64,000 nucleotides of DNA from Vulcanimicrobiota bacterium (lineage in GTDB: Bacteria > Vulcanimicrobiota > Vulcanimicrobiia > Vulcanimicrobiales > Vulcanimicrobiaceae). Below the pieces are notes generated by a model that worked only from the letters and a program-made list of their open reading frames with translations, was not told where the DNA came from and searched no databases. The translations under genes and the position numbers were made by a program. Positions within the stretch are counted from its first letter, which is position 1. Each line of letters begins with the position of its first letter. The DNA is taken from contig CAVZQC010000003.1 in assembly GCA_963777315.1 (NCBI GenBank), positions 32,001-96,000 of the forward strand. Reading direction: 5' to 3'. Positions 13,086-32,118 of the stretch are shown here, piece after piece.

Positions 13086-13171
13086 GCGTGGCAGATTGGA
13101 CAAGGGTGAAACGGAACCCGCCGGCCGGCGCGTTCGGCGGAGGGAAGCAACCCCAGCACGAAGCAGGTCGT

Positions 13172-15970
13172 ATGGGGATGCAGGCTGAGGCCGAAAACAC
13201 GGTCTCCGTTCTCCCTACCGGTACGGTGACGTTTTTGTTTTCGGATATCGAAGGCAGCACCGTGCGGTGGGAAAGCGCGCCCGATGCAATGGCGCTTGCG
13301 TTAGCGCGCCATGACGCGATGATGCGCGAGCTCATCGAAGCGCACGGCGGATACGTGTTTAAAACGATCGGAGATGCTTTCTGCGCGGCCTTCGCAAGTA
13401 CGCCTGAAGCGACCGCCGCCGCCCTTGACGCCCAGCGCGCCCTTATCGCCGAAGATTTTTCGCACGTCGACGGACTGCGCGTGCGCATGGCACTGCATTC
13501 GGGAACTTGCGGCGAGCGCGGCGGCGACTACTTCGGTCCCACCGTCAATCGGGTTGCGAGGTTGCTCGCAATCGGTCATGGCGGTCAGGTGCTGCTCTCG
13601 CGTGCCTGCGCGGAGCTCCTACGCGGTGACACGCCGCAATACGCTCTGCGCGATCTCGGCAGCCACCGGCTCAAGGACCTCTCCCAACCGGAATACGTCT
13701 ATCAGCTGATGGCGCCGGAATTGCCCGACGCGTTTCCGGAGTTGCTCTCGCTCGATCATCTGTCAAACAATTTGCCGGCTCAATTAACGTCGTTCGTCGG
13801 ACGCGAGGAGGTGATGGGTGAGATTAAGGCGCTGCTCGCGCATAACCGGCTCGTGACGCTCGTCGGAACGGGCGGTGCGGGCAAGACGCGTTGTGCGATT
13901 CAGGTCGGCGCAGAATTGCTCGACGGTTCGGGCGACGGCGTATGGTTAGCCGAACTGGCGCCGATCTCCGACGCCTCGCTCGTCACGAGTGCCATTGCGC
14001 GCGCATTGAACGTACAAGCATCGCCGAACCGCCCGATACTGGATACGCTGATCGGTTATCTCAAGCGTAAACGGCTGCTGCTGATTCTTGACAACTGCGA
14101 ACACGTCATCGACGAAGCGCGAACCGTCGCGAGCGCAATACTGCGGGCTTCTCCCGAGGTGCGTATTCTCGTAACGAGCCGTGAGGCGTTGAATATTGCG
14201 GGCGAACGGCTCTATCGCATGCCTTCGCTTGCCGTGCCGCCTACAACGCAGGCGCTATCGCCGCAGGACATCCTCGGATTCGGTGCCTCATTGCTTTTTA
14301 GCGACCGAGCCTTGTCCGTGACCGATCGATTTACGTTGACGGATGAGAACGTCTCGCATGTCGCGGAGATCTGCCGGAGACTCGATGGGATTCCACTGGC
14401 CATTGAACTGGCGGCCGCACGGGTGAAAGTGCTCTCGCCCAAGCACATCGCGCAGATGCTCGACGAGCGCTTCCGTTTGCTGACCGGCGGCGATCGCAAT
14501 GCGCTGCCGCGCCAGCAGACCATGCGCGCCCTGATCGATTGGAGCTACGATCTGCTCACGGACGACGAACGAGCGCTTTTCCGCAAACTCTCGATCTTCG
14601 CCGGCGGCTTCACGCTGGAGGCCGCCGCGATCGTATGCACCGGGAGCGAGATGGATGAAATCGCCATGCTGGATCCGCTTTCGTCGCTCGTAGACAAGTC
14701 GCTCCTGCAAGCCGAGCAAGTTGAAAGTGGGACGCGGTACCGATTCTTGGAATCCACGCGGCAATATGCCCGCGAGCGTCTCGCCGAGCATGGAGAGCAT
14801 GCAGCGGTTGCACAGGCGCATGCAACCGCATTTCTGACCCTTGCTGAAAAGCTGGGGCGAAGTTGGGAGACGACGTCCGATCGGGAGTGGTTCGCCCAGT
14901 TGGAGCCGGAGCTGGAAAACTTCCGCGCAGCGTTGAGCTGGTCGCTCGGCGCGCGAGGCGATGTTTTGCTTGGGCAGCGGCTGGCGGGGGCGTTGCATCA
15001 AGCGTGGTGGTCGCTGGCGACGGCAGAGGGGCGCAGGTGGGTGCAGATGGCGCGCGATCTTACCAACGACCAGACGCCCCGGCCGGTGATGGCCGTACTC
15101 GATCTCACGGAAGCCGAGCTCGCCGCGTCGCTCGTACAATATACGGCAAGCCGTACGGCGTGTGAACGTGCTCTGGGGCACTACAGTGCGATTGGCGATG
15201 CCATGGGAATTGCGTACGCGCAGCGATGTCTGGCCCTCGCGCTGATCTTTCTGGGAAAGATCGAAGAGGGTGAGGCGCTGCTGGGGCCGGCCCTATCGCA
15301 AGCTCGAGCGCTGGGAGCGCGAAGACTGACGGGAGTCGTGCTGCAGACGCTAGCGGACGCGCGTCATTCGGTCGGTGACGTCAGCGAAGCTCGACGCCTG
15401 CACGCCGAAGCATTGGCCAACCTTCGAGCCGTCGGCGCGGAACGCACGGCCGCAAACGTCTGTGTAAATCTCGGCGAAGCGGAGTTTCACGGCGGAAACG
15501 CAGACGAAGCGCTTCGATGGGCAAGTGAGGCGCTCGCTACCCACCGGTCGTTCAACGCCACGCGCGGTATCGCGTTTGCGCAGATCAACATGACGGCATA
15601 TTTGACGGCGCTCGAACGGTACGATGAAGCGCGCCTTTGCGCGCGCGCGGCGATCGGCGCGGCACGCGACGCGCAACTCCAAGTAGGTACGGCATGGGCG
15701 CTGCAGCATCTTGCGGCAACGGTTGTGCTGCGCCCGGCAGATCCCAAGCAGGCGCGTGACGAACGGCGTTGCGGGACGCGTCTTTTGGGCTACGCCGATG
15801 CGCGCCTGACTGAACTGGAATCGTTGCGTGAATTCACCGAGCAGCAGGAGTACGAAAAAATGCTTGCCGCATTAGGCGCGGCGTTAGATGCGGATGAAGT
15901 TGCAAAGCTCATGCGGGAAGGCAGCCTCTGGAGCGAAGATCAAGCCGTCGCCGAGGCGATGCTCATTTAA
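13172..15970 (+). CDS. Class III adenylate cyclase + STAND/NB-ARC-like ATPase + TPR protein
   Basis: FSDIEGST, KTIGDAF, DYFGPTVNRVAR; Walker A GTGGAGKT; LDNCEH; LDGIPLAIELAA; helical C-terminal repeats. Confidence 0.9.
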   Translation: MGMQAEAENTVSVLPTGTVTFLFSDIEGSTVRWESAPDAMALALARHDAMMRELIEAHGGYVFKTIGDAFCAAFASTPEATAAALDAQRALIAEDFSHVDGLRVRMALHSGTCGERGGDYFGPTVNRVARLLAIGHGGQVLLSRACAELLRGDTPQYALRDLGSHRLKDLSQPEYVYQLMAPELPDAFPELLSLDHLSNNLPAQLTSFVGREEVMGEIKALLAHNRLVTLVGTGGAGKTRCAIQVGAELLDGSGDGVWLAELAPISDASLVTSAIARALNVQASPNRPILDTLIGYLKRKRLLLILDNCEHVIDEARTVASAILRASPEVRILVTSREALNIAGERLYRMPSLAVPPTTQALSPQDILGFGASLLFSDRALSVTDRFTLTDENVSHVAEICRRLDGIPLAIELAAARVKVLSPKHIAQMLDERFRLLTGGDRNALPRQQTMRALIDWSYDLLTDDERALFRKLSIFAGGFTLEAAAIVCTGSEMDEIAMLDPLSSLVDKSLLQAEQVESGTRYRFLESTRQYARERLAEHGEHAAVAQAHATAFLTLAEKLGRSWETTSDREWFAQLEPELENFRAALSWSLGARGDVLLGQRLAGALHQAWWSLATAEGRRWVQMARDLTNDQTPRPVMAVLDLTEAELAASLVQYTASRTACERALGHYSAIGDAMGIAYAQRCLALALIFLGKIEEGEALLGPALSQARALGARRLTGVVLQTLADARHSVGDVSEARRLHAEALANLRAVGAERTAANVCVNLGEAEFHGGNADEALRWASEALATHRSFNATRGIAFAQINMTAYLTALERYDEARLCARAAIGAARDAQLQVGTAWALQHLAATVVLRPADPKQARDERRCGTRLLGYADARLTELESLREFTEQQEYEKMLAALGAALDADEVAKLMREGSLWSEDQAVAEAMLI

Positions 15971-16026
15971 GCGTACCAGTGCCGCGTTGCGCTCAGATGC
16001 ACAGCGGCGCCACCGAGGAAAACGCT

Positions 16027-17229
16027 TCAAGGCTTTCCGCGCTTCTTCGTGTGCCACCAAGTCCAGGATGGCCTTCGGCGCGTTTTGCGCAAAGCGGGCT
16101 GGGCCGCCGAAGGGGCGACCGGAGCAGGGCGAAAGTTCATGATGACGACGCGAAGTATACCGGCCACCGGCACCGCGAGCAGAAGGCCCGGAATACCGGC
16201 CAGCTCACCGCCTGCGAGCAAGGCGAGCACGACCGCAAGCGGCGTCAACTCGACGCTCTTGCTGACGACGTTGGGAGCGATAATGTGGCCTTCGAGCTGA
16301 TTTATCACAACGATTCCCAACGTGACGAACAGCGCATTTTCTACGCCGTTTGTGAATAGAGCGATGAAGAAGGCCGGGAGCCAACCGGCAATCGCGCCGA
16401 TGTAGGGAATGACGTCAAGAACGCCGGCAACGGCGCCGATAAGTGCCGCATATTGCACGTGCAATCCCAGCAGCAGGAGCGTCACGAGCGTACCAACGAT
16501 CGCGGCGACGATGAGCTGCCCGCGGATAAAACCGCCGACGACGTGATCGAGATCGGCAATGATTTTCAGCGCCTTCGGCTGCGCGTTCTTGGGGACGAAC
16601 CCCAGGAGGGTTCGCTTGAGCCCTTCAGATTCGATCATCAGATATGCCGCCACCACCGGAATGATGACAAACAGCGCCCCTACGGTCACGATGGAGACGA
16701 GGACGGGCAATACGGTACTGGCCACGCCGGCGCCGTATTTCGAAATGTTCAGCTCGAGCTGCGCGGGGAAATCCTTGAGGTAATCACGCAGCCCCGACGG
16801 TAGATGCTTGGTAAATGGATTGTTTGGATCGACTAGCGCGGATTGCGCATGGTTCACCAGCCTGGGAGCATCGTGAACGAGCTGCTGCGCGTCGGCACCA
16901 AGGATCGGCGCGGCGATATAAATCCCGAACGCAATGAGCAGCGCGATCCCCAGATACACGATGGCGATGGAGACACCGAGCGGGAGCCTGCGATTCAGCC
17001 GGGTTATGAGCGGAAAGACGAGATATGCAAAAAGTACCGCGCCGATGACGACGATTGTAAAGGTGCGAACCCGCACCAAAAACTCCAGCGCCTTATAGAG
17101 AATGAAACCTGCGAGTATGGCGAGCCAGCAGATGCGCACCGCGTACAGCACGCGATCGCTGCGCTGGACGAGCCGTAGCCGCGCGGTTTCTTCCTGTTCT
17201 TGACGGCCGGGAACCGTTCCGTCCTCCAT
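16027..17229 (-). CDS. AI-2E family (PerM-like) transporter
   Basis: GFIRGQ, IPYIGA, QLEGHIIAP and GLLLAVP motifs; multiple TM segments. Confidence 0.9.
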   Translation of the reverse strand: MEDGTVPGRQEQEETARLRLVQRSDRVLYAVRICWLAILAGFILYKALEFLVRVRTFTIVVIGAVLFAYLVFPLITRLNRRLPLGVSIAIVYLGIALLIAFGIYIAAPILGADAQQLVHDAPRLVNHAQSALVDPNNPFTKHLPSGLRDYLKDFPAQLELNISKYGAGVASTVLPVLVSIVTVGALFVIIPVVAAYLMIESEGLKRTLLGFVPKNAQPKALKIIADLDHVVGGFIRGQLIVAAIVGTLVTLLLLGLHVQYAALIGAVAGVLDVIPYIGAIAGWLPAFFIALFTNGVENALFVTLGIVVINQLEGHIIAPNVVSKSVELTPLAVVLALLAGGELAGIPGLLLAVPVAGILRVVIMNFRPAPVAPSAAQPALRKTRRRPSWTWWHTKKRGKP

Positions 17230-17309
17230 TGCGCAGCCGCTCCACTCATGACGATCGCTGCTCCCACCGTTGGTGGCGCTCCTCGCAGTATTTCACTGCG
17301 TTCGCCGGC

Positions 17310-18818
17310 TCAAACGATTTTGACGCGAAATTTTGCAACCACTTTGCCGTTGACCGGCAGCGAGCCGCCGCTATAGGTAAAGGTAACCGTTCCGCCGGAC
17401 TGAGCGGGCGCGCACGAGAGCGGCCCGGGCGTGGTCACGCAGGTTGCGCTCGCCGCCACGTATGCCGTGTATTGCGGGATGGGGTCGCTGATGGAAAACG
17501 ACTGCAGCGCGAACGCGCGGTGATTGGTAAACGTCAGCGTGTATTCCAGTACGTCGCCGGGCAGTCCATTCACCGTATTTCCCGGCCCGAGGGACTCGGT
17601 GATGTTCGCGACCTGTTTGACGAGATTCGCCGCGGTAAACGTCGTCGTGACCGCGTTCGAAGAAAGTGTTTGCCCACCGTACTCCGAGGGGTCGAACGGA
17701 ACGCTTCCCTGCGCGGTATTGACGGCGCTGCCGCTCGAGGAGCTCGTCGAGCCGACCACGTGCAGCGTCGCCGTAGCGCCCGCGCTCAAGTTTGAAGCGG
17801 TTGCAACGACGGTTTGAGCGCTGGCAGCCGACGTTACGGCGCAAGTGCCGGCGCCGCCGGTCACCGCGCATGATGGCGGTGTGATAGACGAGATTGTGAT
17901 GCTCGCAGGGATCGGGTCGGTCAGCGAGGCGCTCGCGGCGGCGAAATATCCCGTGTTCTTGAGCGCGACGTCGTAGAAGAGTGAATCGCCCGGACCGGCA
18001 GCGCCGGTGCCCGCCTTCGCGATCGTGAATGTGGCCGGTACGGATGCGAGATCGTTGACCACGTCGCTTCCGGTCGCAATCGCGGTGTGGCTGCCGACAA
18101 GCGCGCCTGCGGTGGTGTATTCCCACAGCGTCCAAGGAGAACCGCTGCCGATTTGCTCGCAGGCGGCCAGGTCGCCGTTGGGCAAAAGCGCCGCGCCCGT
18201 AAGGCTTCCGCTGGGCCCACTGAGCGTTACGGGACCGGTGACTGCGCCGGTCGTTGCGTTGATCGTGTACAGACTGTGCGTCGCAACGACGTAAAGCGTT
18301 TCGTTGTTGGCTGCAGTCGGAGCGGCGACGATGTCGCCGTTGGTACCGATCGACGTGCTCAGCGTAAGCGTCTTTTGAACCGCGGCCGTGGATGGGTTTA
18401 CCCAGGCGACGGTGTTTGCGCTGGTCATCGTCACGAGGCATCCCGCAGCGCAATACTTCGTCGTAGGATCGAACGACATGCGCGCCTCCGTACCGGACAA
18501 ACCGGAGATCGATCCCACGATCGTTGCGGCACCATAGGCCGTTGCCGACGTCGGCGCGTTCGGATTGAAAGCCGCCTTGACCAGCTGCCCGGAAGCATTC
18601 GAAACGTACAGATTGCCGCTCAAGTCCTGCGCCAGATCCTGGGCGCTGGTTCCCGAAAAAATACTCCCGTACGATTGAACGACGGAGCCCGACGTGGTGT
18701 CGATGAGATAGACGCCGGCGCTGTCGCTGAGCACCATGATGGTTGCCGCGCGTCCGGCAGCCATCGCACCGATCCATCCCAGCACGGCCAGCGCCGCCGC
18801 AAGAAGATAGCGGCGCAT
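17310..18818 (-). CDS. Secreted protein: beta-propeller-like N-terminus + DUF11 domain + C-terminal incomplete DUF11 (putative tip adhesin)
   Basis: Signal peptide; LYxI/VD-type blade repeats; IAK..GPGDSLFYDVALKNTG and LVK..LPGDVLEYTLTFTN..ISDPIP; ends VAKFRVKIV. Confidence 0.75.
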   Translation of the reverse strand: MRRYLLAAALAVLGWIGAMAAGRAATIMVLSDSAGVYLIDTTSGSVVQSYGSIFSGTSAQDLAQDLSGNLYVSNASGQLVKAAFNPNAPTSATAYGAATIVGSISGLSGTEARMSFDPTTKYCAAGCLVTMTSANTVAWVNPSTAAVQKTLTLSTSIGTNGDIVAAPTAANNETLYVVATHSLYTINATTGAVTGPVTLSGPSGSLTGAALLPNGDLAACEQIGSGSPWTLWEYTTAGALVGSHTAIATGSDVVNDLASVPATFTIAKAGTGAAGPGDSLFYDVALKNTGYFAAASASLTDPIPASITISSITPPSCAVTGGAGTCAVTSAASAQTVVATASNLSAGATATLHVVGSTSSSSGSAVNTAQGSVPFDPSEYGGQTLSSNAVTTTFTAANLVKQVANITESLGPGNTVNGLPGDVLEYTLTFTNHRAFALQSFSISDPIPQYTAYVAASATCVTTPGPLSCAPAQSGGTVTFTYSGGSLPVNGKVVAKFRVKIV

Positions 18819-21800
18819 CTACCGGCTTGCCCCCCAGCCGAAGATGCGATCGATGAGGGTTGTGAACGTGAAATAGAATCCCTTGCGTTGCGGCTTTCCG
18901 CTCAACGTCGGATCGATGCTCCCGGAAAAATTGTATCCGGCTGCCAGACGCGCGTCGTTGCCGATTGTGTAACCCGCCTCGGCGGCCACGTCGGTCGTTT
19001 GCGCACCGGGAACGTTGGCCGCATTCAACATCCGCAGCTCAGCGCCCACGTCGAACCGCGTTCCGACGTTTTGACGGGCCCGTAGTCCGAAAAGTGAGGT
19101 GTGGGCGGCGTAATAGCCGTCTCCGTCGAGTTTCTCGGCCACTCTTCCAGCCAGTTCGAACGTATTCCATGGCCGGTACACTTCTTCGAAGGAAAGCACG
19201 TCGGTGCGCTCGGGCAGCAAGGACGAAGTTCCGGTGAGGCGCTCATAGCCGAGCAACGATACCAAGGTGTCGTTGTTCTGCGGACGATAGGCGAGCGAGA
19301 TGCGGTCGTCGGCGGCGTTCGTGCCGCTTCCGGAAACCTGATTGAGCGTTCCGAGCACCGCAATATTCGGTCCGACGTGGCCGGTAAGACCTCCGCTGAA
19401 CGTGGTTCCTCCCAGCGACCCGGTACGCGACTGATATGCCAGGGCCGCGCGAAAATCTTTGGAATCGGAATAGGCAACCGAGCCGCCGTAGACGGTAAAT
19501 CCTGCGGCGCCCGCGCCGGACGCGTTCGCCTGCTGCATCGTGAGGTTTCCACTGAGCCGTTTACCGATGCTGAATTTTTGCGTGACGCCGAGCGCGGAGT
19601 AGATGTCAGTAGCGTTTCCGGTATCCGTAATCAGATAATCGCTCTCAACGTTCATGGCCGGGCTCATCGCGCGTTCGAAGCCGATTTGCGTCGAACGCGT
19701 TCCAAGGTTCGTCAATCCGAGCGCGCCTGCAGATTGCGCGAACGCCGTTGCAGCAGAATCGCTGAGCAGTTGCCGCACGAACACTTTGCTGCGGTCGTCG
19801 AACGCATAACTCAATTCAGCGGAGGTTTGTGCCGGCTGCGTGGTCTGCGCGGTTGCTCCGGTCAGATCCTGATCGCGCTGAACGTTCAAGCCGACGCGCT
19901 TGCTCGGTTTCCAGTCGAAGCCGAGCTGAGCTTGCATTTGCGTGGAGCGTTGCAGCACATTCGGCTCAGGGGAGCTGCCCGTGAGCGGCGGCGATATGGT
20001 CAGTGGAACGTTTTGCTGCGCGTGCGCCTGGACGCCGAACAGCAGCGAAATCGTTTTGTTCACCGCTGTATTCCACAGCAGGCTCGCGTTGTTTTGCGCG
20101 TCTTCAACGCCCGCTCCATGATTGCGCTGGCCATCGGCTTCGAGCGTCAACGTCTGGCCGGGCGCTGCATGACGAGACCACGCAACGCGATAATTGGTAA
20201 AGCCCGGCGAGGATATCCCGCCGAACGGGTCGGCGAAACCGGCTGCGGTGTCTTGATACAGCGCGTCGATTTGATTGGGGCCAATGCGGTCGTTCAAGGT
20301 GAGATCGATCGCGTTGCCGCCGCCCCCGCTCGAAAGTTGACCCCCCGTAACGCCGGGCGCCGACCCCGAACTCGACGCGTGTGAAAGTATCCACTGGCCG
20401 CCCGGAAGCTTTCCGGTTAATGATTGCGAGACCAAGGAGAAGTTCGATGCTCCGGTGGCATCGTTGACGTAGGAAACGCGCAGTTTGGCTGCCGCTGAGC
20501 CGCCGATATCGACCCATGCGTTGCCTCCGGTTACTGCCGAATGCGTGGCGATTCCTTGATACTGATACTGCAGCTGCAGCACCTGAGGATTGAAATAGGG
20601 GTCGAACGGCAGCGGAACGTTGATGAAACGCAGCGTTCCGGTTGCATAATCTATCGTGTAATCGACGTTTCGAATCAACGGCGTTTGCGAGATGACGGCG
20701 CCGGTTCGCCGGTCTATCGACGCAAGGGTGATGTAATCGGATCCGACGACGATGTCGGGCTGCAGCGGCTGCGCAAGCGTCAAAAGGCCGCTCACGGGAA
20801 TGGTCGTCGAGACGTACGCCACTTGATTGCGCGCCGTGAACGCGTTCACATGAATGTGAGAATCCTTGTTCGCCAACTCGACTTTTGCACCCGAGAGCAA
20901 CTGTCGATACGCGCCAACCGCGTTGTCATCGCCGGCGGTTGCTTGAAATTGTCCCCACATGATACTGTCGCGTCCGCTGTCGAGGCGTGCGTACAACCGA
21001 TCGTTGGACTCAAAATCGGAAGATCGCGTCGAGGAATCTCCATAGGTTTGATACGGGCGTTCGTTCGGATCGTCCACGAAGGGACCATACGAAGAGAGCG
21101 GGGCAAGCGTGTTCTGCGACTCGTACGCAACGGTCAGCAGAGACTGTTTGCCGACGCGGCCGCTGGCAAACAGTGCAGCGCGTGCCCGGCGCGCGCTGCC
21201 GCCGTCGTCTACGCCATCGCCGTCGACCGCAATCGGCACGGCTCCGGCGCCTACGCTGACCAGTCCGTTGACCAGCGGTTTACGCAGATAGGGCGCGACG
21301 TACAGCGTTTGTGCAGACGTGAGTTCGCCCGCCGCGATTTGCAGCGTGATGTCGCCGGCCGTCAGCCCGGGAACGATGGGAATGCCGACATGCCCTCCGA
21401 GGCCGAGCTGCGCGGTGAAAACCGCGTTTTCGCTGCCGGGCGAGGCTGTGGGCGCCGGCGACGCGCCGGTGGTCGCCGACGGTAAGCCGGCGGATGCAAA
21501 GCGCGCATCGCCGCGCATGAGCGTGACCTTCACTGGGACTCCCGCCATCGCGGGATCCCCCCAGCGGTCCGTCGCGGAAACATCGAGCAATACGGCGCTT
21601 CGGCCGTCGGCCACGAGCGTGCCTTGCAACTGGGTGCGCAGCGTTGCGGGAGGCCCGCAACCGTAGATTAACGCCGTTGCCGAAGCTCCGCGCAACCCTG
21701 CTGCGCCTATCGGGGTGGCGACGAGCTCATTTGGGCCGGGCTTGAGGACGACGCCGAAATATTCGAACTGCGCCGTTCCCCCTTTGGCCGAAGCGGTACG

Positions 21801-22148
21801 GCGTCCGATGCGGGTAAGCGGCACGAGTTCGCCGTTCACGCGCAGCTCCACGCCGGCGCCGTACACCGTGTCGACGACGACTCGCGTTGCAACTGAAGGC
21901 GATACCGTTTTGTCGGACGGAAAAGCGAACGATGCCGTCAGCGGGCCGGTCGCGGTGTACGATTCATGCGCAAGATCCGCGTACTTGATCGAATTCGGCG
22001 ACTCGGACGGTGCCGGGCTCGGGCTGGAGATCGGCGCGGCAACGTCGTCGCCGGTGGCCCCCGATCGCGTCGCCGCCGCGCAGATCAACGAAATGGCAAT
22101 CATCATGGCGCCGATTCGGCGAAGCGCATGTGCGATGGCGATTGTCAT
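18819..22148 (-). CDS. Large outer-membrane beta-barrel protein with N-terminal Ig-like domains
   Basis: Signal peptide, Ig-like region (LKPGPNELVA), YQTYGDSS, DYTIDYATGTL and a long C-terminal run of amphipathic strands. ATGA overlap with the upstream gene. Confidence 0.75.
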   Translation of the reverse strand: MTIAIAHALRRIGAMMIAISLICAAATRSGATGDDVAAPISSPSPAPSESPNSIKYADLAHESYTATGPLTASFAFPSDKTVSPSVATRVVVDTVYGAGVELRVNGELVPLTRIGRRTASAKGGTAQFEYFGVVLKPGPNELVATPIGAAGLRGASATALIYGCGPPATLRTQLQGTLVADGRSAVLLDVSATDRWGDPAMAGVPVKVTLMRGDARFASAGLPSATTGASPAPTASPGSENAVFTAQLGLGGHVGIPIVPGLTAGDITLQIAAGELTSAQTLYVAPYLRKPLVNGLVSVGAGAVPIAVDGDGVDDGGSARRARAALFASGRVGKQSLLTVAYESQNTLAPLSSYGPFVDDPNERPYQTYGDSSTRSSDFESNDRLYARLDSGRDSIMWGQFQATAGDDNAVGAYRQLLSGAKVELANKDSHIHVNAFTARNQVAYVSTTIPVSGLLTLAQPLQPDIVVGSDYITLASIDRRTGAVISQTPLIRNVDYTIDYATGTLRFINVPLPFDPYFNPQVLQLQYQYQGIATHSAVTGGNAWVDIGGSAAAKLRVSYVNDATGASNFSLVSQSLTGKLPGGQWILSHASSSGSAPGVTGGQLSSGGGGNAIDLTLNDRIGPNQIDALYQDTAAGFADPFGGISSPGFTNYRVAWSRHAAPGQTLTLEADGQRNHGAGVEDAQNNASLLWNTAVNKTISLLFGVQAHAQQNVPLTISPPLTGSSPEPNVLQRSTQMQAQLGFDWKPSKRVGLNVQRDQDLTGATAQTTQPAQTSAELSYAFDDRSKVFVRQLLSDSAATAFAQSAGALGLTNLGTRSTQIGFERAMSPAMNVESDYLITDTGNATDIYSALGVTQKFSIGKRLSGNLTMQQANASGAGAAGFTVYGGSVAYSDSKDFRAALAYQSRTGSLGGTTFSGGLTGHVGPNIAVLGTLNQVSGSGTNAADDRISLAYRPQNNDTLVSLLGYERLTGTSSLLPERTDVLSFEEVYRPWNTFELAGRVAEKLDGDGYYAAHTSLFGLRARQNVGTRFDVGAELRMLNAANVPGAQTTDVAAEAGYTIGNDARLAAGYNFSGSIDPTLSGKPQRKGFYFTFTTLIDRIFGWGASR

Positions 22149-24316
22149 CGTGTATCCTGCAGAGCGAAGTTGACGTCTTCCATGAGGCCGTCGTCGAAGA
22201 GTCCGTGCACCAAACGCTGCATCGACCACGTGCTGTTCATGCGCGCGTTCGAGAAGGGACGAACGGTCTGCGGAATCGTCGCCGGATCCACGCGTAGCAC
22301 GTGCATCCCGGGCCTCACGGCCGCGAACGAGTAGCGTCCGTTCTGATCCGTAAGGACGGAGCTCCCGTCCTCCAGAAAGATACGCACGCCCGCAATGCCC
22401 TCATCGCCTGTGCTGAACCGTCCGGTGCGATGCACGTCCAGAAACACGCGGCCCGTGATCACGCCGCGCTGCGAGAACGCTCCGGCGACCACGCGTACGT
22501 CGGCAGTTGCGCCGGCCGTCGCCGAAACGGCGGTTCCCGGAATCTTCGCTGAAGCGGTCACCGTGTTGACGAGCGTCGTTCCGGCCACCGCTGATGGAAA
22601 AACGAGGGCGGCGTAGACGATGTCGTGCGTCGTCGAGGGAGGTAACGCCGGAACGTTCCAGGTCAGAACGCGCCCGTTTACCGAAGGTTCCAGCGGCGTT
22701 GAGTCCATGCGCGCCGTGCCGGGTGCGTACGATTCGCCCGGCGGAAGCACGTCCGCTACTTGCGTTTCACCGAGTCCGGATTGCGATGGATTCCCGAATT
22801 GGATCGTGTAGATCAGCCGATCTCCGGGCTGCGCGACCGGCTTATCCACCGCTTTGCTCACCGAGATCGATCGCGCGGTGAACAGCGGGACGTTTCCGAA
22901 CAATCCGAACACGTTGGCAAGCGTTACGTTGGCGGAAGTCAGCACAAAACCACCTGCTTGCGCCAGCGGCTGACCGTCCAGCGACGAAGCCGTGACGTCG
23001 TACAGCATCTTGCCGGCATCGAGTTTTATAATCAGACCGATCTTGCGGTTCATGAATCCCGGAGCGGTAATCGTCAGGAAAAACTGCGATCCCCCGGGCG
23101 CAATCATGCTCGGCGCGACCGCGAAGGAATACGCGCCGTTCGCGCCGGTGGTGAACGGATTCTGCGTGTTCGCCGTATCGACGGGCGGCACGCCGCTCAT
23201 ATTCACCGGTTTACCGTTTGCATCCAATAGCGTGACGACTGCTGCGCCCACCGGGCGATCGGCATTTGAAGGATCGAAAACGAGGTTTGCAGTCCCGATC
23301 AGCACGCTCGCAGGCGTCGTATTGGTGGCGGATACGCCGTCGGCCGCCACTTGCGCAACGTTGGTGAAGGTCGCACCGGTCGTCGAATTGGCCAGAACCG
23401 AGGCAGTAAAGGAGACGTCGAACGTCGCCCCGGCCGCAACCGAAGGAATGCGGACCGACAGCGTCCGACCGGAAAGCGTCGCAGCCGAACCCGCCGGCGA
23501 CCCGTCGAGCAGCACCGACGAAAGATTCGCTTGCAATCCGGCCGGAACAACATCGGTGACCACCACGTTCGTCGCTGCCGCTTCGCCCGAGTTCTTCGCG
23601 CGAATGTCGAACGTGACGTCGGCGCCGGGGTTGGACTGTACGATCAGCTGCTGATCGACCGTTTTCGATATCTGCGTCGCAGGGCCGCCGATCCCGGTGA
23701 ATTGCGGACCTTGCGCTGCCAAGGCCCATTGCATGCCGGTGTCGCTTTGCAATCCGTTGGAGGTACCTGCGACCGTGGTTTGCGCCGTAATGGAAAGCGG
23801 AAACGCCGTTCTAAGCGCGATGCCGCCCGTTGAAACGACGATCTGCAACTCAATGGAGTCACCCGGCGGGACGCTGGGCGAAACCGTCGATCCAATCGTC
23901 GCGGGATACGATGCGCCGCCTGCGACGAACGCCGCGGAGAGCAGCTTACCGGGACCGGTGCTTGCGGTCTGGATCGTGTACGCGTCGGTGACGTTGCTGA
24001 CGTTCGTGATTGTGAACGCGCGCGTCACGTTCGATCCGGCGGCGTAGGCGTCGGTCGCCGGATCGACTTTCGATTCCTTCGGCGTGACGGTGAGCGCTCC
24101 GACCGGCGCGTACGTTGTAATCACCGGGTTCGAATCGGCAACATAACTCTGCCCCGAACCGTCTTCATATGTGGCGGTCGCGGTGTTCTGCACTTTGGAG
24201 CCTGCCGGAGTCGCGGTAATCATCGGCCTGAAAGGCGCCGCCTGCAGCAGTCCCGGTGCGAGCGCAGCCAGCGCGAACACGGGGAGAATCTGCCGAACAA
24301 CGCGTGCGATGTTCAC
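22145..24316 (-). CDS. Secreted multi-DUF11 protein with C-terminal SdrD-B/CnaB-like domain (putative base subunit)
   Basis: Signal peptide; [83 protein letters not shown]. Confidence 0.8.
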
Positions 24317-24340
24317 GCCGGATGCGCTAAACGCTTCCCG

Positions 24341-26674
24341 TTATTTCGCGATCACCGCGAAGTACAGGATGCCGCCGACCTGTGGCGTCAGCACGAACGT
24401 ACCGCCGCCGACTTGATCCATGAACGCGTTGGATGCGACCGCGTTGCCGTTGTCGTTGGGCGTGCTGGATCCGCCGACGACCGCGTACGTCGAGCCCGTG
24501 GTGTTGTCGCCGCAGGTTCCCGCAACGTTGCCGCACTGATTGGTTACCGCAGCACCCGAGGTGAGCGCTTCCTTCAATCCACCCGAATACGTGGCCCAGG
24601 TATTCGTGCCGGCGCCGCCGTCTTCGGTGATTTTTAGCGTTCCCGCGACCATCGCGAGGGCAACGTTTCCTGCTCCACTGACCGTGCTTACCGGAAGCGT
24701 ATTGAGATAGGCGACTTTGTATTGGATTACGCCGGCCGGACAAACGCCGTTCGCCGGAACGGAAGCACCCGCGGGACACCCGGTTGAGAGCACGGTTGCG
24801 GTTTTTTGCAGCGAGATGAAGCCGCCCGGCATGAGCACGTGATAGGTCGAGTTACTGTACGATCCGGATGCTTGTGAGGTCGCGAGCACCTGAACGTATA
24901 TTGGATTGAAGTCCGTCGGCGCGTTTGCTCCGCTTGCGCTGCTGTATTTCACGCAGTACGGCGCGGTCGCGCTCGCCGAAACGGAGATCTGATAGTTGCC
25001 TGAGCCGTCTTTGGTAGCCAGATTCGTGCAGTTATAGTCCGTGTACACGCCGGTCACCGTGACGGCCGCCGGCAGGCTCGGAAACGTAAAGGAGTACGTG
25101 TCGTTGCCGCTCGACGTATTCTGAAGATCGCCTGGAACGTTGAGCACCGTGCCGCCGGGGAGCTGGGCGCCGAACGTGCCGTTGGATCCCAGACTCGCTT
25201 GCGTGAAATCGGTGTTGGTAGTGTTGCTGCCGCAGGTCGCGGTGTTGTAGCAGCCGGAAGCGCCGGCGGCGCCTTTCGGGCCGTTGAGCACACCGGGAAC
25301 GTTGCTGGTCGTAGTATTCGACAGGCCGTTGGCCGCAGGATTTCCGCTCGCGGCATTATACGCGGTCGATGGATCGGCGGTACCGTTATTGGGAACCGTT
25401 CCCGGCGCGATGCCCGGACCTTCTACAAAGCCCGCGTTGTCCGCGTATGCCGTGACCGCGACGTTCTTGATCGCATTTCCGGGCGGCAAGTTGGTGAGCG
25501 TGAGCGTAAACTCCAGTTCCGCTTGCGCGTTGCTGACGTTGCCTGCACTCGACCCCGACGACCCGACCGGAATCGCCCCGGTACCGGTGATGTAAACACC
25601 CACAAAGTACGCGGTGCCGGCGGATGGAGCGGTGGTCGTCCAGCCGGATTTTCCCGTGTTGTCCGTGGTGTAGACGATCGTTGCGGTGTCGCCCGCGATG
25701 CTGATGTTCTTGGTGATGCTGGCGCTCGAAACGGTAAGCGGCACGCCGCCGTTTTGCGGAATCTTGTCGGTGACCAGGATGCCGTTGTTGGTTGCGCTGA
25801 GCGCCGAGCCGGTAATCGTCGTACCGCTTTGGCGAATCGACTGCAGCAACTGCGCGGGCGCAGCGCCGCCGTTGTTCACGTCGATCGTGTAGGTGAGGGT
25901 ATTGCCCGAAACGACGCCGGCGGTTTTCTGCAAATCCAAGCGTGCGTCGGCGACGACCGTATCGCCGTACGTGTTCGATACCGCATTGGACGTCGAAGCG
26001 CCGTAATTCGAACCGGTCCCCGGATAAGTGATCGTCGCACCGGCAACCGTAGTGCCCACGGTGCCGGATCCCGCCGTTGTGACTTTATATTGAATCGCCA
26101 CGTTGATGAACGCGCCTGCTGGCAGGCCGTAGACGTTCGTGTTTGCGGCCGTCGAAAGATACGTATTGGCTGCGGCGACCGTCGCGAACGTATGCGGCAC
26201 GCCGTCCGTACCGGTGACGATGACGTTTTGGAACGTACCGGGTCCGCTGACCGTCGACGTGCCGGCGCCGAGCTGAAAGTAGCCGCTGGAATTTCCGGTG
26301 TTCGTCAGCGTGTAAATGTCGTTGATGACGTTGCCGTACACAATGGGACCGGCCGGCACGTTTTGATTTTGCGTGGTCGAACCCGGCGCAGTTCCGTTGT
26401 TCGTCGTGATCACCAGCGAAGGCGCGTTCTGGACGAACGTCTGGACTTGATTGGACGTCGAGCTGTAGGTGTTCGTGCCGTCGCTGTATGATGCGCTGGC
26501 GGTGTTGTTGATCGCGGTACCCGGCGCGGTGGAGGATGTCGGCGTTGGCATCGGCGTGTAGATTGGCGGCGGCGTGGCGGCAATGGCGGGTGAAACGCCG
26601 ATTCTCACCGCCGCAAGAGCCAGCCCACAGGCCAGAACGAAAAGCAGGGCCAGCAGGCCGCGCGAAGTCTTCAC
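24341..26674 (-). CDS. Secreted T/S/G/N-rich DUF11 protein (putative major fibre subunit)
   Basis: GAGG RBS + GTG; signal peptide; TAPGTAINNTASASY; LDLQK..LTYTIDVNNGG..VTDKIP; ISLQK..PAGVIQYKVAYLN; paired Cys; ends LYFAVIAK. Confidence 0.8.
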   Translation of the reverse strand: MKTSRGLLALLFVLACGLALAAVRIGVSPAIAATPPPIYTPMPTPTSSTAPGTAINNTASASYSDGTNTYSSTSNQVQTFVQNAPSLVITTNNGTAPGSTTQNQNVPAGPIVYGNVINDIYTLTNTGNSSGYFQLGAGTSTVSGPGTFQNVIVTGTDGVPHTFATVAAANTYLSTAANTNVYGLPAGAFINVAIQYKVTTAGSGTVGTTVAGATITYPGTGSNYGASTSNAVSNTYGDTVVADARLDLQKTAGVVSGNTLTYTIDVNNGGAAPAQLLQSIRQSGTTITGSALSATNNGILVTDKIPQNGGVPLTVSSASITKNISIAGDTATIVYTTDNTGKSGWTTTAPSAGTAYFVGVYITGTGAIPVGSSGSSAGNVSNAQAELEFTLTLTNLPPGNAIKNVAVTAYADNAGFVEGPGIAPGTVPNNGTADPSTAYNAASGNPAANGLSNTTTSNVPGVLNGPKGAAGASGCYNTATCGSNTTNTDFTQASLGSNGTFGAQLPGGTVLNVPGDLQNTSSGNDTYSFTFPSLPAAVTVTGVYTDYNCTNLATKDGSGNYQISVSASATAPYCVKYSSASGANAPTDFNPIYVQVLATSQASGSYSNSTYHVLMPGGFISLQKTATVLSTGCPAGASVPANGVCPAGVIQYKVAYLNTLPVSTVSGAGNVALAMVAGTLKITEDGGAGTNTWATYSGGLKEALTSGAAVTNQCGNVAGTCGDNTTGSTYAVVGGSSTPNDNGNAVASNAFMDQVGGGTFVLTPQVGGILYFAVIAK

Positions 26675-26687
26675 TGATGTTCCTCGA

Positions 26688-27191
26688 TTACGGCTTTTTG
26701 GCGGCGGGATGTCCGTTGACGCGCACTTCATAGCTGAACGTCTGCGTCTTATGCGGTGCAAGTGCCCGTGGCGCGATCCAGCGCACGGCCTTGTACAACG
26801 CCGGGTCGGCGGCTTTCACGAGCGTTCTTCGCGGCGTCTTCACCGAAAAGGCCGGCCGGGCGGACCAGCTCTTCCCATCCAGCGTGTATTGGACGGCGGC
26901 ATCGTCGCCGCGCGCAGACTGCAGAACGTATGAAGTTGCTTGGGGGATGGGGCCGACCGGAACGAGTTTGAACGCGGGAGAGGTTCCTACGTTCGTCGCG
27001 ACGATCGTGTAGCGAACGAGATCGCCGGCCTTGAGCGTCAGCCCTTGCACGGGCGTTTGTTTGATTTGACCGTTGCTATGCTGCACAAGCACGCCGCTCA
27101 AATGCAGTTTCACCGCGGGTGCCGCCGCGGCTGCCGCCGAGCAGCACGCAAAAATCGCGCCCAACAGTAAAGGCGCGCGCAGAACTCTCAT
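26688..27191 (-). CDS. Small secreted protein with a single incomplete DUF11-like domain
   Basis: GGAGG RBS; signal peptide; KAGDLVRYTIVATNVG..GPIPQATSYV..YTLDGKSWS..AVRW..FSYEVRVN. Confidence 0.8.
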   Translation of the reverse strand: MRVLRAPLLLGAIFACCSAAAAAAPAVKLHLSGVLVQHSNGQIKQTPVQGLTLKAGDLVRYTIVATNVGTSPAFKLVPVGPIPQATSYVLQSARGDDAAVQYTLDGKSWSARPAFSVKTPRRTLVKAADPALYKAVRWIAPRALAPHKTQTFSYEVRVNGHPAAKKP

Positions 27192-27336
27192 GTATCCTCC
27201 CAACAGCGTGCGGTGCACCGGACCGCAACGCTTATTAGCACCACTATCGGAAGGGAAGGCTCGCGCTATAGGTGTCCGGCACTGTACATACGAAAATTTA
27301 ACGCTGCACCGCTCGAGCTCAGCACGCCCACCGATT

Positions 27337-27860
27337 TCACTTCAGCGCGTCGCCGTACTTACCCGAGAGGTTCTCATTTACTTGACCGGTTTCGCCGGCC
27401 CAGGGCTGCTTGGAGTCCTTCATGTCCGTCATCGTCGCAACCAAGGTATAGCGCGGGTTGATCCTCCTGGCGGCGGTTGGAATAAAACAGCACGATACGA
27501 TGCTGCAGCTTGAGATGAGCCGCTTGGACGACGATGCTCCGAAACGTCGTGATACGTGTAATGTCAGGTCTCCGAATGGACCCTCGATGTTCGTGGCGCT
27601 CTCCAATGCTTCGGATTTCAAGACGCGTTTAAACGCCGTGCCTCGCGTACGCGTAGCGATCATAATATGTTCTTCGTACGGAGCGCTTGCAACGGAAAAG
27701 CCGCGTATTGCCTTCGCTGTCGTTCTCAGGCGGAATTGGAAAGCGTGATGTCGATAAACTGCCCGGCCGTAAACGTCCAATCGGCCGGCTTTGAAATTCG
27801 AAAGCCATCGTGCCCTTAGCGGCTTGCTCGCCTTAAGCGGCGATATAAACGTCGGCCACC
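27337..27860 (-). pseudogene. Decayed ferredoxin-NADP+ reductase-like FAD/NAD oxidoreductase
   Basis: Fragments in alternating frames: GTMAFEF, FTAGQFIDITL, RGFSVASAP, TAFKRVL, IEGPFGDLTLH, ITTFRSIV, IVLFYSNRR, YTLVATMT. Internal deletions remove the AGGIG segment. Start is approximate. Confidence 0.8.
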
Positions 27861-27951
27861 AAACCGCACAGATAACGTGGACATTTGCCCCCTACGGTGC
27901 AACGATGAATCGCGACATTTTTGCTGGGCCGCGGCCCAACGCTACGATAGT

Positions 27952-28507
27952 ATGAGGCGCATGCTGCTCACGCTCGGACATGGAACTGCGGCTGAGGATG
28001 AACTTGCGGCAATCATTCGTGGAGCGGGGTTCGAGTCGCTCGTCGACGTCCGCACTGTCCCTAAGAGCCGTCGTCATCCGCAGTTTTGGCGCAAAGAGAT
28101 GGAACGCTGGGTCCCGGAACGCAGTAGAAGCGCGTATCGGTGGGAGCCGGCTTTGGGCGGCTTTCGAAAAGCCAATCGCAATAGCCATAACGTCGCCTTG
28201 CGTCATCCTTCATTTCGCTGGTATGCCGATTACATGGAGACCGATGCCTTCGCAGTCGCGCTCGACGACCTTCTCGCGCAAACGAGGACGGCGCAGGTGG
28301 CGATCATGTGTTCCGAAACCGTTTGGTGGCGCTCTCACCGCCGGCTGATATCGGATGCCGCGCTCCTGCTTCATGGCGTTTCCTGTGCAGCACGTAATGC
28401 ACGATGGCAAACTTCGGCCGCACATTCCCACGGCCGGTGTTCGCACGACGGCGGAGGGAACGCTCCGTTATGACGTACTGTTCGAGACCGCTGACGCTAT
28501 GGATTAG
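27952..28507 (+). CDS. DUF488 family protein with one frameshift near the C-terminus
   Basis: TLGHG, LVDVR..P.SRRHPQF, LGGFR, IMCSE..WWRSHRRLISD. Removing one T at 28379-28381 restores HGVPVQHVMHDGKLRPH...MD*. Confidence 0.85.
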
Positions 28508-28597
28508 ACGAGATTTATATGGCAACGCCATCCGGTCGGATTGATGCCGACTTGATGAGGCGGTACGTGTTGCTGGCCGGTAAAACGACCTTATGTT

Positions 28598-30279
28598 TCA
28601 GCGGCTCCGCTCGGGACGATTTGCGTAGCTGAATATTGGCCGCATTGTCAGCCATGCGTAACCCGCCCCCGCTCGATGTGCTAGCGCCTGCAGTGTATCG
28701 ATTTCTTCGGGAATATAGTGCGTGTGGTCGGTCTTCGGCCCACAAACGATAAACCCAACCAAGTGAGTGCGTGCCGTCATCGGAAGCATGAGCGCCGCCC
28801 GCAAGGGGTGCTGCGGTGCATCGCATTCGAAGGGCTCGCTCCAGCGGCGTAGTCGCAGCACGGCCAGATCGTTTGCCGACAGTATCTCCGGCGTGCCCTG
28901 CACAATCGGGTGCGACTGTACGAACGTCGCGCCGTCTGCGGTGAAGATTGCGACGTATTGCGACTCGAGGCGCATGCGAAGCGTTTGAAGGGTTTGCGCG
29001 AGCAGCTGGCCTGGGTCGCTTATGAGATCCACCTCATGAGTGAAACGGCGGATAGCGGCCAGTGCAAGCGCCTGCGCGTGAAAGATGATGCGGTTCAAGG
29101 CCCGTTCGATATATTTGTGCATGCTCGTAATCGAAAAGCCCAGCGCAAGCGCTAAGGCGACTTCCGCGACGATGTGGAAGCGCGAATGCTCGAGCCACTT
29201 CCCGAAAGCCCAATCTGCTAACGCAAGGATGCCGATCGTTAACGTCGTCATGAAACCGAAGACAAGAGCACGGCTCACGACGAAGCGAATATCGAACAAC
29301 CGGTGCTTAAGGATCGTGTATGCCAGGGCAACAGGAGCAACAATGAGCCACGCCTGAGTGAGATTTGCGACCGATAACGAAAGTAAACGTCCCGCCGCGT
29401 TTTCAACAGCGGTAAAGAAAACGTAGGGCAAAAAGGCGATTGCGAAAGCGGAGATGGCCCACCGTAGGCGCGTCCGTTCGTCTTGTTCCGAACGCGTATA
29501 CCTGAAAATCAATACGGCAATGCCCGGCACGTAAAGCGCGGCGATGGCTATTTGAATGTCGCTGGTGAGCGCTTGCGGATAACGTATGCCGATTAAGCTC
29601 GCGCCGCTGCAGATATTTGCTAGAGCAAGGACCGGCGCGACAGCGAACCAGAGTATTCGCTCGACGCGTTGAGGCAGGCCGGTGGGCTGCGCATTTGGAA
29701 AGCGCAGACCGAACGAAAATAGTGCGAACGGGGCGATCGCCTGCAGTACCGGGATCGTAAAGAAGCTGAAGAGTACAATGAGCCACGGCGGAAAATACTG
29801 GAGTGCCTGATCGCCGTTGTACAAGAAGGAAGAAGAAAATATAAAGAACGACCACGTCGTGGGCATGGGACGCAGCAGTACCAAAGCGGCAGCGATCAGT
29901 GTATACGCCACTAAGGACAAGACAGACTGCAATATCCGTCGCATTCTCGGCAAGAGTTCGTGCCCTCGGATGTGCCACCAGCGTCGCGCTTTTTCCGGAA
30001 AGTAGCGGTAGCACGATGACTTGTCCGGCGTAGCCGACTCCCACGGCGCCTAAGCTTGGTGCGTTCCGCCAGGGTCATCCGAGAGAGGTCGACAGCGTCT
30101 CCCACATGCAAGCCTTGGGCGCGCGCATAGTCGTCGACCGCCGTAACAACCCCGGCGCTATTCGTTCCAAATCCAAAGCTGCTCCAGGGCTGCCATGGAT
30201 CAACGATGTCGGGGGCAGTAAATGCCAATGCGCCGAGCGCCAGAAAGAGGATAACGGAGACTCGCAAAAATGTGCGCAT
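28598..30279 (-). pseudogene. Multi-TM sensor-like membrane protein (PDZ-like N-terminus, TM bundle, C-terminal GAF-like domain) with two frameshifts
   Basis: AGGAG RBS at the 30279 start; coding continues across three frames with shifts near 30050 and 29935. YTILKHRLFDIRFVVSRALVF and LMLPM..LVGFIVCGPK..Y..EE..TL motifs. Confidence 0.7.
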
Positions 30280-31981: not shown

Positions 31982-32118
31982 TTGGTTCTTCGGGGGTTGC
32001 GGCCGCATTGAGTGAAGTCGATGCACTATAGAGCGGTCCCTCGATGGGGTTAAGGTGTTCGTGGAACGGGAATGGGCTCGAAAACGCTGCAGCGTCACGC
32101 ACCCGGAAAGGAGTTTGT

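Follow-up and report, generated by a model that had tools for sequence, protein, structure and literature searches.

A five-gene operon in the window

The DNA analysed here (the window) is a stretch of 64,000 nucleotides, positions 32,001 to 96,000 of the forward strand of contig CAVZQC010000003.1 (GenBank assembly GCA_963777315.1), from an uncultured soil bacterium with two membranes that belongs to Eremiobacterota (Vulcanimicrobiaceae) and has a genome of 2.8 Mb. On the minus strand, five neighbouring genes lie in the order p176-p777-p723-p1136-p502 and encode candidate parts of a surface fibre. A note made from the sequence alone (the earlier note) had proposed that a DUF11 domain is split between the ends of these proteins, with an N-terminal hairpin of one subunit completing the C-terminal domain of another and an isopeptide possibly locking the joint. 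In profile alignment the two pieces tile a complete DUF11 domain of the same operon, and we consider a fibre joined in this way to be rather probable.

The first gene, p176 (26688-27218, minus strand, as for all five genes), encodes a small secreted protein with one DUF11-like acceptor domain that lacks the last hairpin. It is followed after 13 nucleotides by p777 (24341-26674, minus strand), the candidate shaft, which starts with GTG and encodes a signal peptide, a donor hairpin, about four immunoglobulin (Ig)-like domains and a C-terminal acceptor. After a gap of 24 nucleotides comes p723 (22145-24316, minus strand), the candidate base, with a signal peptide, a donor hairpin, an Ig-like domain, two complete DUF11 domains and a C-terminal domain resembling SdrD_B and CarboxypepD_reg. 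The stop codon of p723 and the start codon of p1136 (18819-22148, minus strand) overlap in the sequence ATGA; p1136 encodes 1109 amino acids from the ATG at 22148, with a signal peptide, two Ig-like domains and a giant outer-membrane beta-barrel. The start of p502 (17310-18818, minus strand), the candidate tip, abuts the p1136 stop codon (0 nucleotides), and its product has a signal peptide, an N-terminal region without known family, a complete DUF11 domain and a C-terminal DUF11 acceptor. Signal peptides of the Sec type were recognised by eye on all five proteins. The p777 frame also extends over 26675-26761 to a TTG at 26761 (806 amino acids), overlapping the last part of p176; starting from the GTG at 26674, the protein has a normal signal peptide and begins where the p777 homologues do.

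Pfam and NCBIfam scans covered seven proteins of the operon region, with curated cut-offs of 24.6 bits for PF01345 and 24 bits for TIGR01451. The results showed that p723 (69.4 bits to PF01345, in two stretches, and 58.5 bits to TIGR01451) and p502 (32.1 and 51.7 bits, two DUF11 domains) are members of both models, and that p176 reaches 29 bits with TIGR01451 and, below the cut-off, 21.7 bits with PF01345. In addition, residues 214-324 of p723 matched TIGR04226, an isopeptide-forming model, at 45.7 bits (cut-off 30). No Pfam or NCBIfam family matched p777 or p1136.

A hairpin motif shared by the N-termini of p777 and p723

Immediately after the signal peptide, p777 and p723 carry the same motif, as had been noticed earlier. 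In p777 it spans residues 49-83 (TAPGTAINNTASASYSDGTNTYSSTSNQVQTFVQN; 26426-26530, minus strand), with the N57 codon at 26504-26506 and the N75 codon at 26450-26452, and in p723 it spans residues 36-69 (24110-24211, minus strand). A hidden Markov model (HMM) of 40 positions, built from 31 p777 homologues, gave 30.2 bits with the p723 hairpin. Among 26,051 six-frame open reading frames (ORFs) of at least 60 amino acids from the whole genome, this HMM matched only p777 (E 1.1e-18) and p723 (E 5.8e-7), both at the N-terminus, showing that the similarity is far above chance.

A second profile, made from 44 sequences of both hairpin kinds, was searched against 1.84 billion representative proteins and matched 946 of them at E ≤ 0.001. 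For 148 of the best 150 of these 946 proteins, the match began no later than residue 100, which argues that the predicted hairpin is a distinct element following the signal peptide and not a generic DUF11 end. The two exceptions among the best 150 were P0192, a repeat protein of 5081 amino acids with 29 internal stretches matching the profile, and P0193 (937 amino acids), with hairpins at 42-77 and 714-749.

In the p777-type hairpins, T49, I55, N57, A59, A61, Y63, D65, Y70, S74, N75, V77, V81 and N83 are invariant (31/31), and in a wider set N57 was present in 84/84 hairpins and N75 in 82/84. A family alignment of 65 p723-type hairpins showed N44, the equivalent of N57, in 64/65, S62 in 65/65 and N63, the equivalent of N75, in 45/65. 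Conservation across the 31 p777 homologues, which come from two phyla, is highest in the hairpin and the C-terminal domain, in keeping with the proposal that p777 is a shaft subunit with both donor and acceptor.

Acceptor and hairpin tile one DUF11 domain

DUF11 has been renamed CLIPPER (PMC12617251). Domains D1 and D2 of p723 are ordinary members of this family, and D1 (23291-23695, minus strand; residues 208-342) is complete, with its own Lys/Asp/Asn triad. Profile-profile alignment with hhalign showed that the C-terminal acceptor of p777 (24344-24841, minus strand; residues 612-777, with the K624 codon at 24803-24805 and the E684 codon at 24623-24625) aligns with positions 8-101 of the 135 positions of D1 and ends there (E 1.3e-3), whereas the p777 hairpin covers positions 102-133 (E 0.024) and the p723 hairpin positions 101-132 (E 0.018). 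Mature p176 aligned with positions 6-103 (E 3.3e-9). Acceptor and hairpin thus tile D1 exactly in profile alignment; for the p777 C-terminal domain and both hairpins, the tie to DUF11 comes from hhalign alone.

These alignments bear out two claims of the earlier note, namely that the hairpin motif corresponds to the last two strands of a complete DUF11 domain and that the C-terminal domains of p777, p502 and p176 stop where the hairpin would begin. The D1 boundaries support the second claim for p777 and p176, and the three chains end as claimed, in ...GGILYFAVIAK (p777), ...KFRVKIV (p502) and ...FSYEVRVNGHPAAKKP (p176). In weak alignments, each of the internal domains 1-3 of p777 extends into the last-strand region of D1 with residues of its own. 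The p777 internal domains have their own last strands, and therefore the N-terminal hairpin is supernumerary and the C-terminal domain is one hairpin short.

Candidate acceptor-only tips and a candidate donor-only base linked to a barrel

The C-terminal acceptor of p502 (17313-17636, minus strand; residues 395-502) matches PF01345 positions 15-81 of 114 and carries LVK and SISDPIP. The fifth gene varies between loci and its C-terminal end is kept: at 21 further loci, an ORF just past the barrel gene has a p777-type acceptor end without a hairpin, and in Acidobacteriota, as in the window, the fifth gene ends in a canonical DUF11 acceptor (...VRIR and ...KFRVKIV, respectively). An acceptor-only tip had been postulated for p502, and these equivalents support it.

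The candidate base, p723, was expected to be donor-only. It has the hairpin, its own DUF11 domains are complete (Lys, Asp and Asn invariant in 32/32 sequences) and its gene is ATGA-coupled to the barrel gene. Furthermore, in 13 loci, all titled Acidobacteriota or Pyrinomonadaceae, the hairpin, p723 and p1136 form one open frame, and such p723-p1136 fusions of about 1850-1950 amino acids occur as called proteins in public records among the matches listed. At loci L020, L041 and L052, the p723 and p1136 homologues are split into two or three ORFs, possibly by frameshifts, decay or assembly errors. A sequence search of the PDB with whole p723 gave no match at E ≤ 1.

In the AlphaFold2 (AF2) model of p1136 (mean predicted local distance difference test (pLDDT) 74.4), two Ig-like domains are followed by about 40 long strands, which lie between residues 292 and 1098. 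Foldseek matched it to TonB-dependent receptors, LptD and FimD at probability 1.0, with template modelling (TM) scores of just 0.15-0.24; FimD was one among many large barrels (E ~6e-6, TM 0.15/0.22). With the type IX secretion system model TIGR04189 (SprA/Sov), whose cut-off is 200 bits, p1136 scored 13.2 bits in a match confined to residues 515-537, so it is not a member. In a profile search with p1136, the best 120 of 194 matches were close relatives, which makes the search uninformative on the range past two phyla.

The donor of p723 occurs without an incomplete domain, and the acceptors of the tips and p176 occur without a hairpin, so that neither can be complemented from its own chain. 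Donor-only and acceptor-only proteins are our strongest argument for complementation between chains.

A putative isopeptide triad divided over two chain ends

A Lys-Asn isopeptide has been seen by crystallography in a CLIPPER domain (9IFR: Lys715, Asp748 and Asn806), and in CnaA-like folds the isopeptide lies between the first and penultimate strands (PMC12617251). In D1, K11, D48, P51, N112 and A114 are invariant in 32/32 sequences, the Asn lying within a v-N-x-A motif, and the D1 profile matched BcpA (3kpt) at E 0.0034 and, weakly, 9ifr at E 0.86. The donor hairpin repeats the Asn motif of D1 as I55-x-N57-x-A59. On the acceptor side, K624 is present in 69/69 sequences, in the inward-facing register of the first strand; position 684 is acidic in 68/69 (Glu in 59, Asp in 9), and W693 is present in 68/69. 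A complete triad in one chain was found in D1; the terminal acceptors keep the Lys and the acid and have no conserved C-terminal Asn or Asp. In the 21 tip acceptors, the Lys (21/21) and the acid (21/21) are retained and no column after residue 700 reaches 80% Asn or Asp, which argues that the third residue is supplied by another chain.

The putative triad is divided over two chain ends, with Lys and acid on the acceptor and Asn on the donor, and a spontaneous Lys-Asn isopeptide probably locks the joint. By homology, N57 is likelier than N75 to be the bonding residue; N75 remains a candidate. The suggestion of a Lys-Asn lock fits this arrangement, the DUF11 Asn lying on the penultimate strand (PMC12617251), the counterpart of the first strand of the donor hairpin. 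A bond within one chain, between Lys624 and Asp753, was also considered and rejected: column 753 is Ala in 14/21 tips, and past residue 700 no column has Asn or Asp in at least 80%.

p176 resembles an acceptor without the bonding residues

In the 80 homologues of p176, Leu occupies the position equivalent to K624 in 79/80, Leu or Ile the position equivalent to E684 in 77/80, and Gly the canonical DUF11 Asp position in 65/80. The small protein had been taken for a free acceptor, either chaperone or cap. The acceptor domain without a hairpin stands; the picture is refined in that Leu replaces the Lys and Leu or Ile the Glu, suggesting an acceptor of the non-covalent kind. Judged by these substitutions, p176 probably holds or caps the free hairpin without bonding to it.

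A predicted complex of hairpin and acceptor

Structure prediction of the shaft C-terminal domain with the p777 N-terminal hairpin, a check of the kind proposed in the earlier note, gave a positive result. ESMFold2 placed hairpin residues 44-88 in the p777 domain 610-777 with a median interaction prediction score from aligned errors (ipSAE) of 0.69 (0.69, 0.76 and 0.59 in the three runs), against 0.00 for the best of three controls. The ipSAE mark was reached by 116/157 solved complexes and 2/215 mismatched pairs, counts that are approximate for the custom alignment used here. At least 89% of the contacts were common to the runs, and the partner pLDDT was at least 71. The predicted interface comprises hairpin residues 53-66 and 70-82; the first hairpin strand would pair with the acceptor strand 679-685 (low-error pairs 59-63 with 680-683) and the second with the first acceptor strand 620-626 (low-error pairs 74-77 with 622-626).

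In the AF2 monomer of p777, pLDDT is about 70 over residues 50-90. When the whole model was compared by Foldseek and VIA-align, generic multi-Ig matches were obtained (PrgB, AgI/II C-terminal domains, integrin legs and BcpA), which left the C-terminal domain uncovered; BcpA and GBS80 domains gave Z 8.1-8.6.

Residues 633 and 645 of p777 form a Cys pair in the loop between acceptor strands one and two. C645 is present in 21/21 tip domains, and there is no Cys at this place in Acidobacteriota shaft proteins. Loop residues 633, 637, 639-640 and 642-646 contact the hairpin in the predicted complex, and the pair may form a disulfide clasp over the donor.

Conserved gene order and spread

The gene order is conserved at 80 loci. 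In every locus with enough sequence (79/79), a p176 homologue immediately precedes the p777 homologue, a hairpin-bearing p723 homologue lies downstream of the shaft gene in 57/61 loci (the misses being L034, L052, L069 and L078), and a p1136 homologue is present in 54/55. The flanking genes differ between loci and are not conserved. Of ten sampled full-length representatives, eight combine an N-terminal hairpin with an acceptor that lies at the C-terminus or close to it. These eight include WP_166282613.1, a DUF7925 protein from the culturable cyanobacterium Lyngbya confervoides BDU141951, in which residues 41-74 of 857 form the hairpin and residues 704-856 the acceptor.

In some Eremiobacterota, p777-like genes form tandem arrays of two or three or occupy a second locus as well (G139:C5:135702-151943; two places in G130:C1), which may correspond to several shaft variants or several fibres. 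The atlas adds further leads, with small DUF11 proteins clustered in Gemmatimonadota and Pseudomonadota, and clusters of barrel-like proteins in Fidelibacterota.

Proposed mechanism and alternatives

We favour, as rather probable, the reading that the operon encodes an outer-membrane-rooted surface fibre whose subunits are joined by trans-complementation of a split DUF11/CLIPPER (CnaA-like) domain, with a probable isopeptide lock. The C-terminal domains of p777 and p502 lack the last two strands, and the N-terminal hairpin of p777 or p723 would fill in for them. Once docked, the hairpin would bring the donor Asn near the buried Lys624 and Glu684 of the acceptor, and a Lys-Asn isopeptide would then lock the joint spontaneously. 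The order would run from the acceptor-only tip through p777, used once or many times, to the donor-only p723, which would be tied to the giant barrel p1136; the barrel would be the anchor and perhaps the conduit. Meanwhile, p176 would hold or cap the free hairpin.

Several points weigh against this mechanism. With hhalign, the E-values are weak both for the C-terminal domain (1.3e-3) and for the hairpins (0.018-0.024); the acid is assigned to different strands depending on which two of p176, the C-terminal domain and D1 are aligned; and Pfam, given just the hairpins or just the p777 C-terminal domain, found no family. The low-error contacts of the predicted complex place K624 by S74, N75 and V77 and not by N57, which lies by Y652 and W693. 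The complex score may also reflect the model's memory of intact CnaA-like folds, in which case it would indicate likeness and not binding. The hairpin of p777 and p723 is always accompanied by the same following domain, so that it could pack inside its own chain. A profile of p777 found the gene in 32/201 genomes sampled across the phylum (30/170 of good quality), suggesting that the system is accessory. Finally, a base fused to the barrel is a tethered donor that would quickly cap a free acceptor, which argues for a short fibre over a long polymer.

This last point leads to the alternative that survives best, although we think it fairly unlikely: complementation would occur once per joint and produce a defined covalent assembly of tip, p777 and p723-barrel, such as a modular adhesin stalk, and not a homopolymeric pilus. 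Such an assembly would suit a donor-only base that is fused to the barrel in 13 loci as a tethered terminator, a p777 that is large for a major pilin, and a set of genes that all lie in one tightly coupled operon; moreover, close cousins of true partners also pass the complex scoring, by which self-pairing of p777 is indistinguishable from p723-to-p777 pairing. However, p777 carries a compatible donor and acceptor, permitting head-to-tail chains, the p777-type hairpin and C-terminal domain are the best-conserved parts of the family, and p777-like genes stand two or three in tandem in some genomes.

An improbable alternative keeps the complementation and drops the bond, as in chaperone-usher systems, with Lys, Glu and Asn merely structural. 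The buried Lys with an adjacent acid in 69/69 shafts and 21/21 tips is hard to explain on these terms, as is the replacement of exactly these two residues by Leu in p176, although the isopeptide in the p777 joint is a prediction from conservation. Bond-free examples of both kinds exist: some DUF11 domains have no bond (PMC12617251), and BsaA oligomers are stable to sodium dodecyl sulfate (SDS) even without theirs (bioRxiv 10.1101/2024.11.04.621531). Very unlikely, in our view, is that the C-terminal domains lack nothing, being compact variants with seven strands, and that the hairpin folds with the next domain or its own chain, the proteins being separate adhesins that share an operon with a barrel: hairpin and domain 1 are always together in p777 and p723, DUF11 relatives span seven to nine strands (PMC12617251) and the alignment E-values are weak, but domain 1 has its own last two strands, the tips and p176 lack any hairpin while the tips retain Lys and acid, the hairpin is predicted to dock on the C-terminal domain by both edges with controls at 0.00, and no domain of p723 is left incomplete for its hairpin to fill.

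Beyond the mechanism that we favour, we tentatively entertain a broader possibility, in which the operon would represent a widespread class of covalent pili of two-membrane bacteria that are assembled through a naturally split isopeptide domain and use neither sortase nor adenosine triphosphate (ATP). Here p176 would be an 'inverse chaperone' that keeps each subunit's donor hairpin in a copy of the acceptor pocket devoid of Lys and Glu and passes it to the true acceptor at the barrel of about 40 strands, and formation of the irreversible isopeptide would drive both assembly and export.

Comparison with known systems

The principle itself is already known from BsaA and archaeal threads; the novelty lies in the fold, in a hairpin as the donor, in the dead acceptor and in a base at the outer membrane. 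In the 'exchange and lock' model of BsaA (bioRxiv 10.1101/2024.11.04.621531), an N-terminal donor enters the next subunit and a spontaneous intersubunit bond forms, with N35 on the donor and K74 and E56 on the acceptor; the same division of Asn to the donor and Lys and Glu to the acceptor is found here, by conservation only. BsaA differs in its TasA fold, single-strand donor, one-domain subunits, Gram-positive host, SipW peptidase and type IV pilus-linked secretion, whereas the present system would combine a split CnaA-like DUF11 domain, a two-strand hairpin and multidomain subunits with two membranes, a giant barrel, a base and the dead acceptor p176. The Pfam scan found no TasA-family or signal-peptidase match among the operon proteins.

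A PapD-like two-domain chaperone and an usher-family barrel are the hallmarks of chaperone-usher systems, and neither family matched any of the seven proteins scanned with Pfam and NCBIfam. Chaperone-usher pili (Fim, Pap; PMC13721041) would share with the proposed system the logic of an acceptor-only tip, a shaft with donor and acceptor, and a terminator at the base, an N-terminal donor that completes an incomplete Ig-like fold, an outer-membrane barrel and a small periplasmic helper. Their joints are non-covalent and made by one strand, whereas the tiling and the predicted complex (0.69 against 0.00) point to a two-strand hairpin here; their chaperone donates a strand to a groove, and p176 instead resembles a groove that would receive the donor; and the usher is a barrel of 24 strands, compared with about 40 in p1136. 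In its available text, this 2026 review of bacterial surfaces mentions donor strands for chaperone-usher pili only. Sortase pili (BcpA, 3kpt) are also built from multidomain pilins of Cna-type domains that are covalently joined, but they depend on LPXTG and sortase. The five operon proteins contain no match to LP.[TSA][GANS], the Pfam and NCBIfam scans found no sortase family among them, and an outer membrane is present.

SpyTag/SpyCatcher is an engineered split isopeptide pair derived from a domain that forms its bond within one chain. Similarly, in DogTag/DogCatcher (PMC8878318), which is man-made, a strand or hairpin excised from a domain of the Cna type docks again and forms its bond unaided, whereas the present system would be a natural split that serves assembly. 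The CLIPPER domain 9IFR shares the domain family, the Lys/acid/Asn chemistry and the Asn on the penultimate strand, but its triad lies in one chain and stiffens adhesin stalks, whereas here another subunit carries the last two strands and the Asn at its N-terminus; the available text of that paper (PMC12617251) contains neither 'split' nor 'strand complementation'. Archaeal threads of Saci_0406 (PMC9715654) also combine donor-strand complementation with a proposed covalent link made without a known enzyme, and differ in fold, in their archaeal host and in having no outer membrane. Full-text searches, which covered few of the subscription journals, found no paper on a split DUF11/CLIPPER domain or such a pilus. 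Two apparent precedents were rejected: the text match in PMC11821415 was to DUF1102, and PMC11844507 concerns DUF11 domains of a spore-appendage anchor, which are irrelevant here.

If the mechanism is true, it would add to the routes of pilus assembly that bacteria of the Gram-negative type use and would be the first with spontaneous covalent joints between subunits, and a natural counterpart of the engineered SpyTag/SpyCatcher pair. The catalytically dead partner p176, together with several orthogonal donor/acceptor pairs, would be usable for protein ligation. It would also account for a gene set conserved in Eremiobacterota and Acidobacteriota of soil and peat and in at least one cyanobacterium, and DUF7925 proteins as well as a family of giant outer-membrane barrels would gain a role. 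Two small recombinant pieces would suffice for a direct test of the mechanism.

Host background and neighbouring genes

An outer membrane is present in a cultured member of Eremiobacterota, and type IV pili are the sole pili mentioned in the available text of the Vulcanimicrobium paper (PMC9758169). No RNA dataset is listed as containing the sequence, and one soil DNA run contains a fraction of 0.17 of the sampled words. A scan of 15800-28600 for promoters and terminators gave 2 and 17 sites, respectively, no more than in shuffled sequence.

An AI-2E transporter gene (PF01594, 203.6 bits; 16027-17229, minus strand) lies 80 nucleotides past p502 and was considered as a part of the system. It was rejected, as no homologue was found at the 80 other loci. 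On its far side, about 1.3 kb beyond p502 and on the other strand, lies an ORF of 973 amino acids (13049-15970, plus strand) that by eye resembles a cyclase-type sensor with an ATPase and repeats. Homologues of this ORF lie within the 10 kb that flank the p176 homologue on its upstream side at L049 (E 1e-68), L007 (3.5e-53) and L042 (6.7e-25), with weaker ones at L081 and L054, and the ORF may encode a linked regulator.

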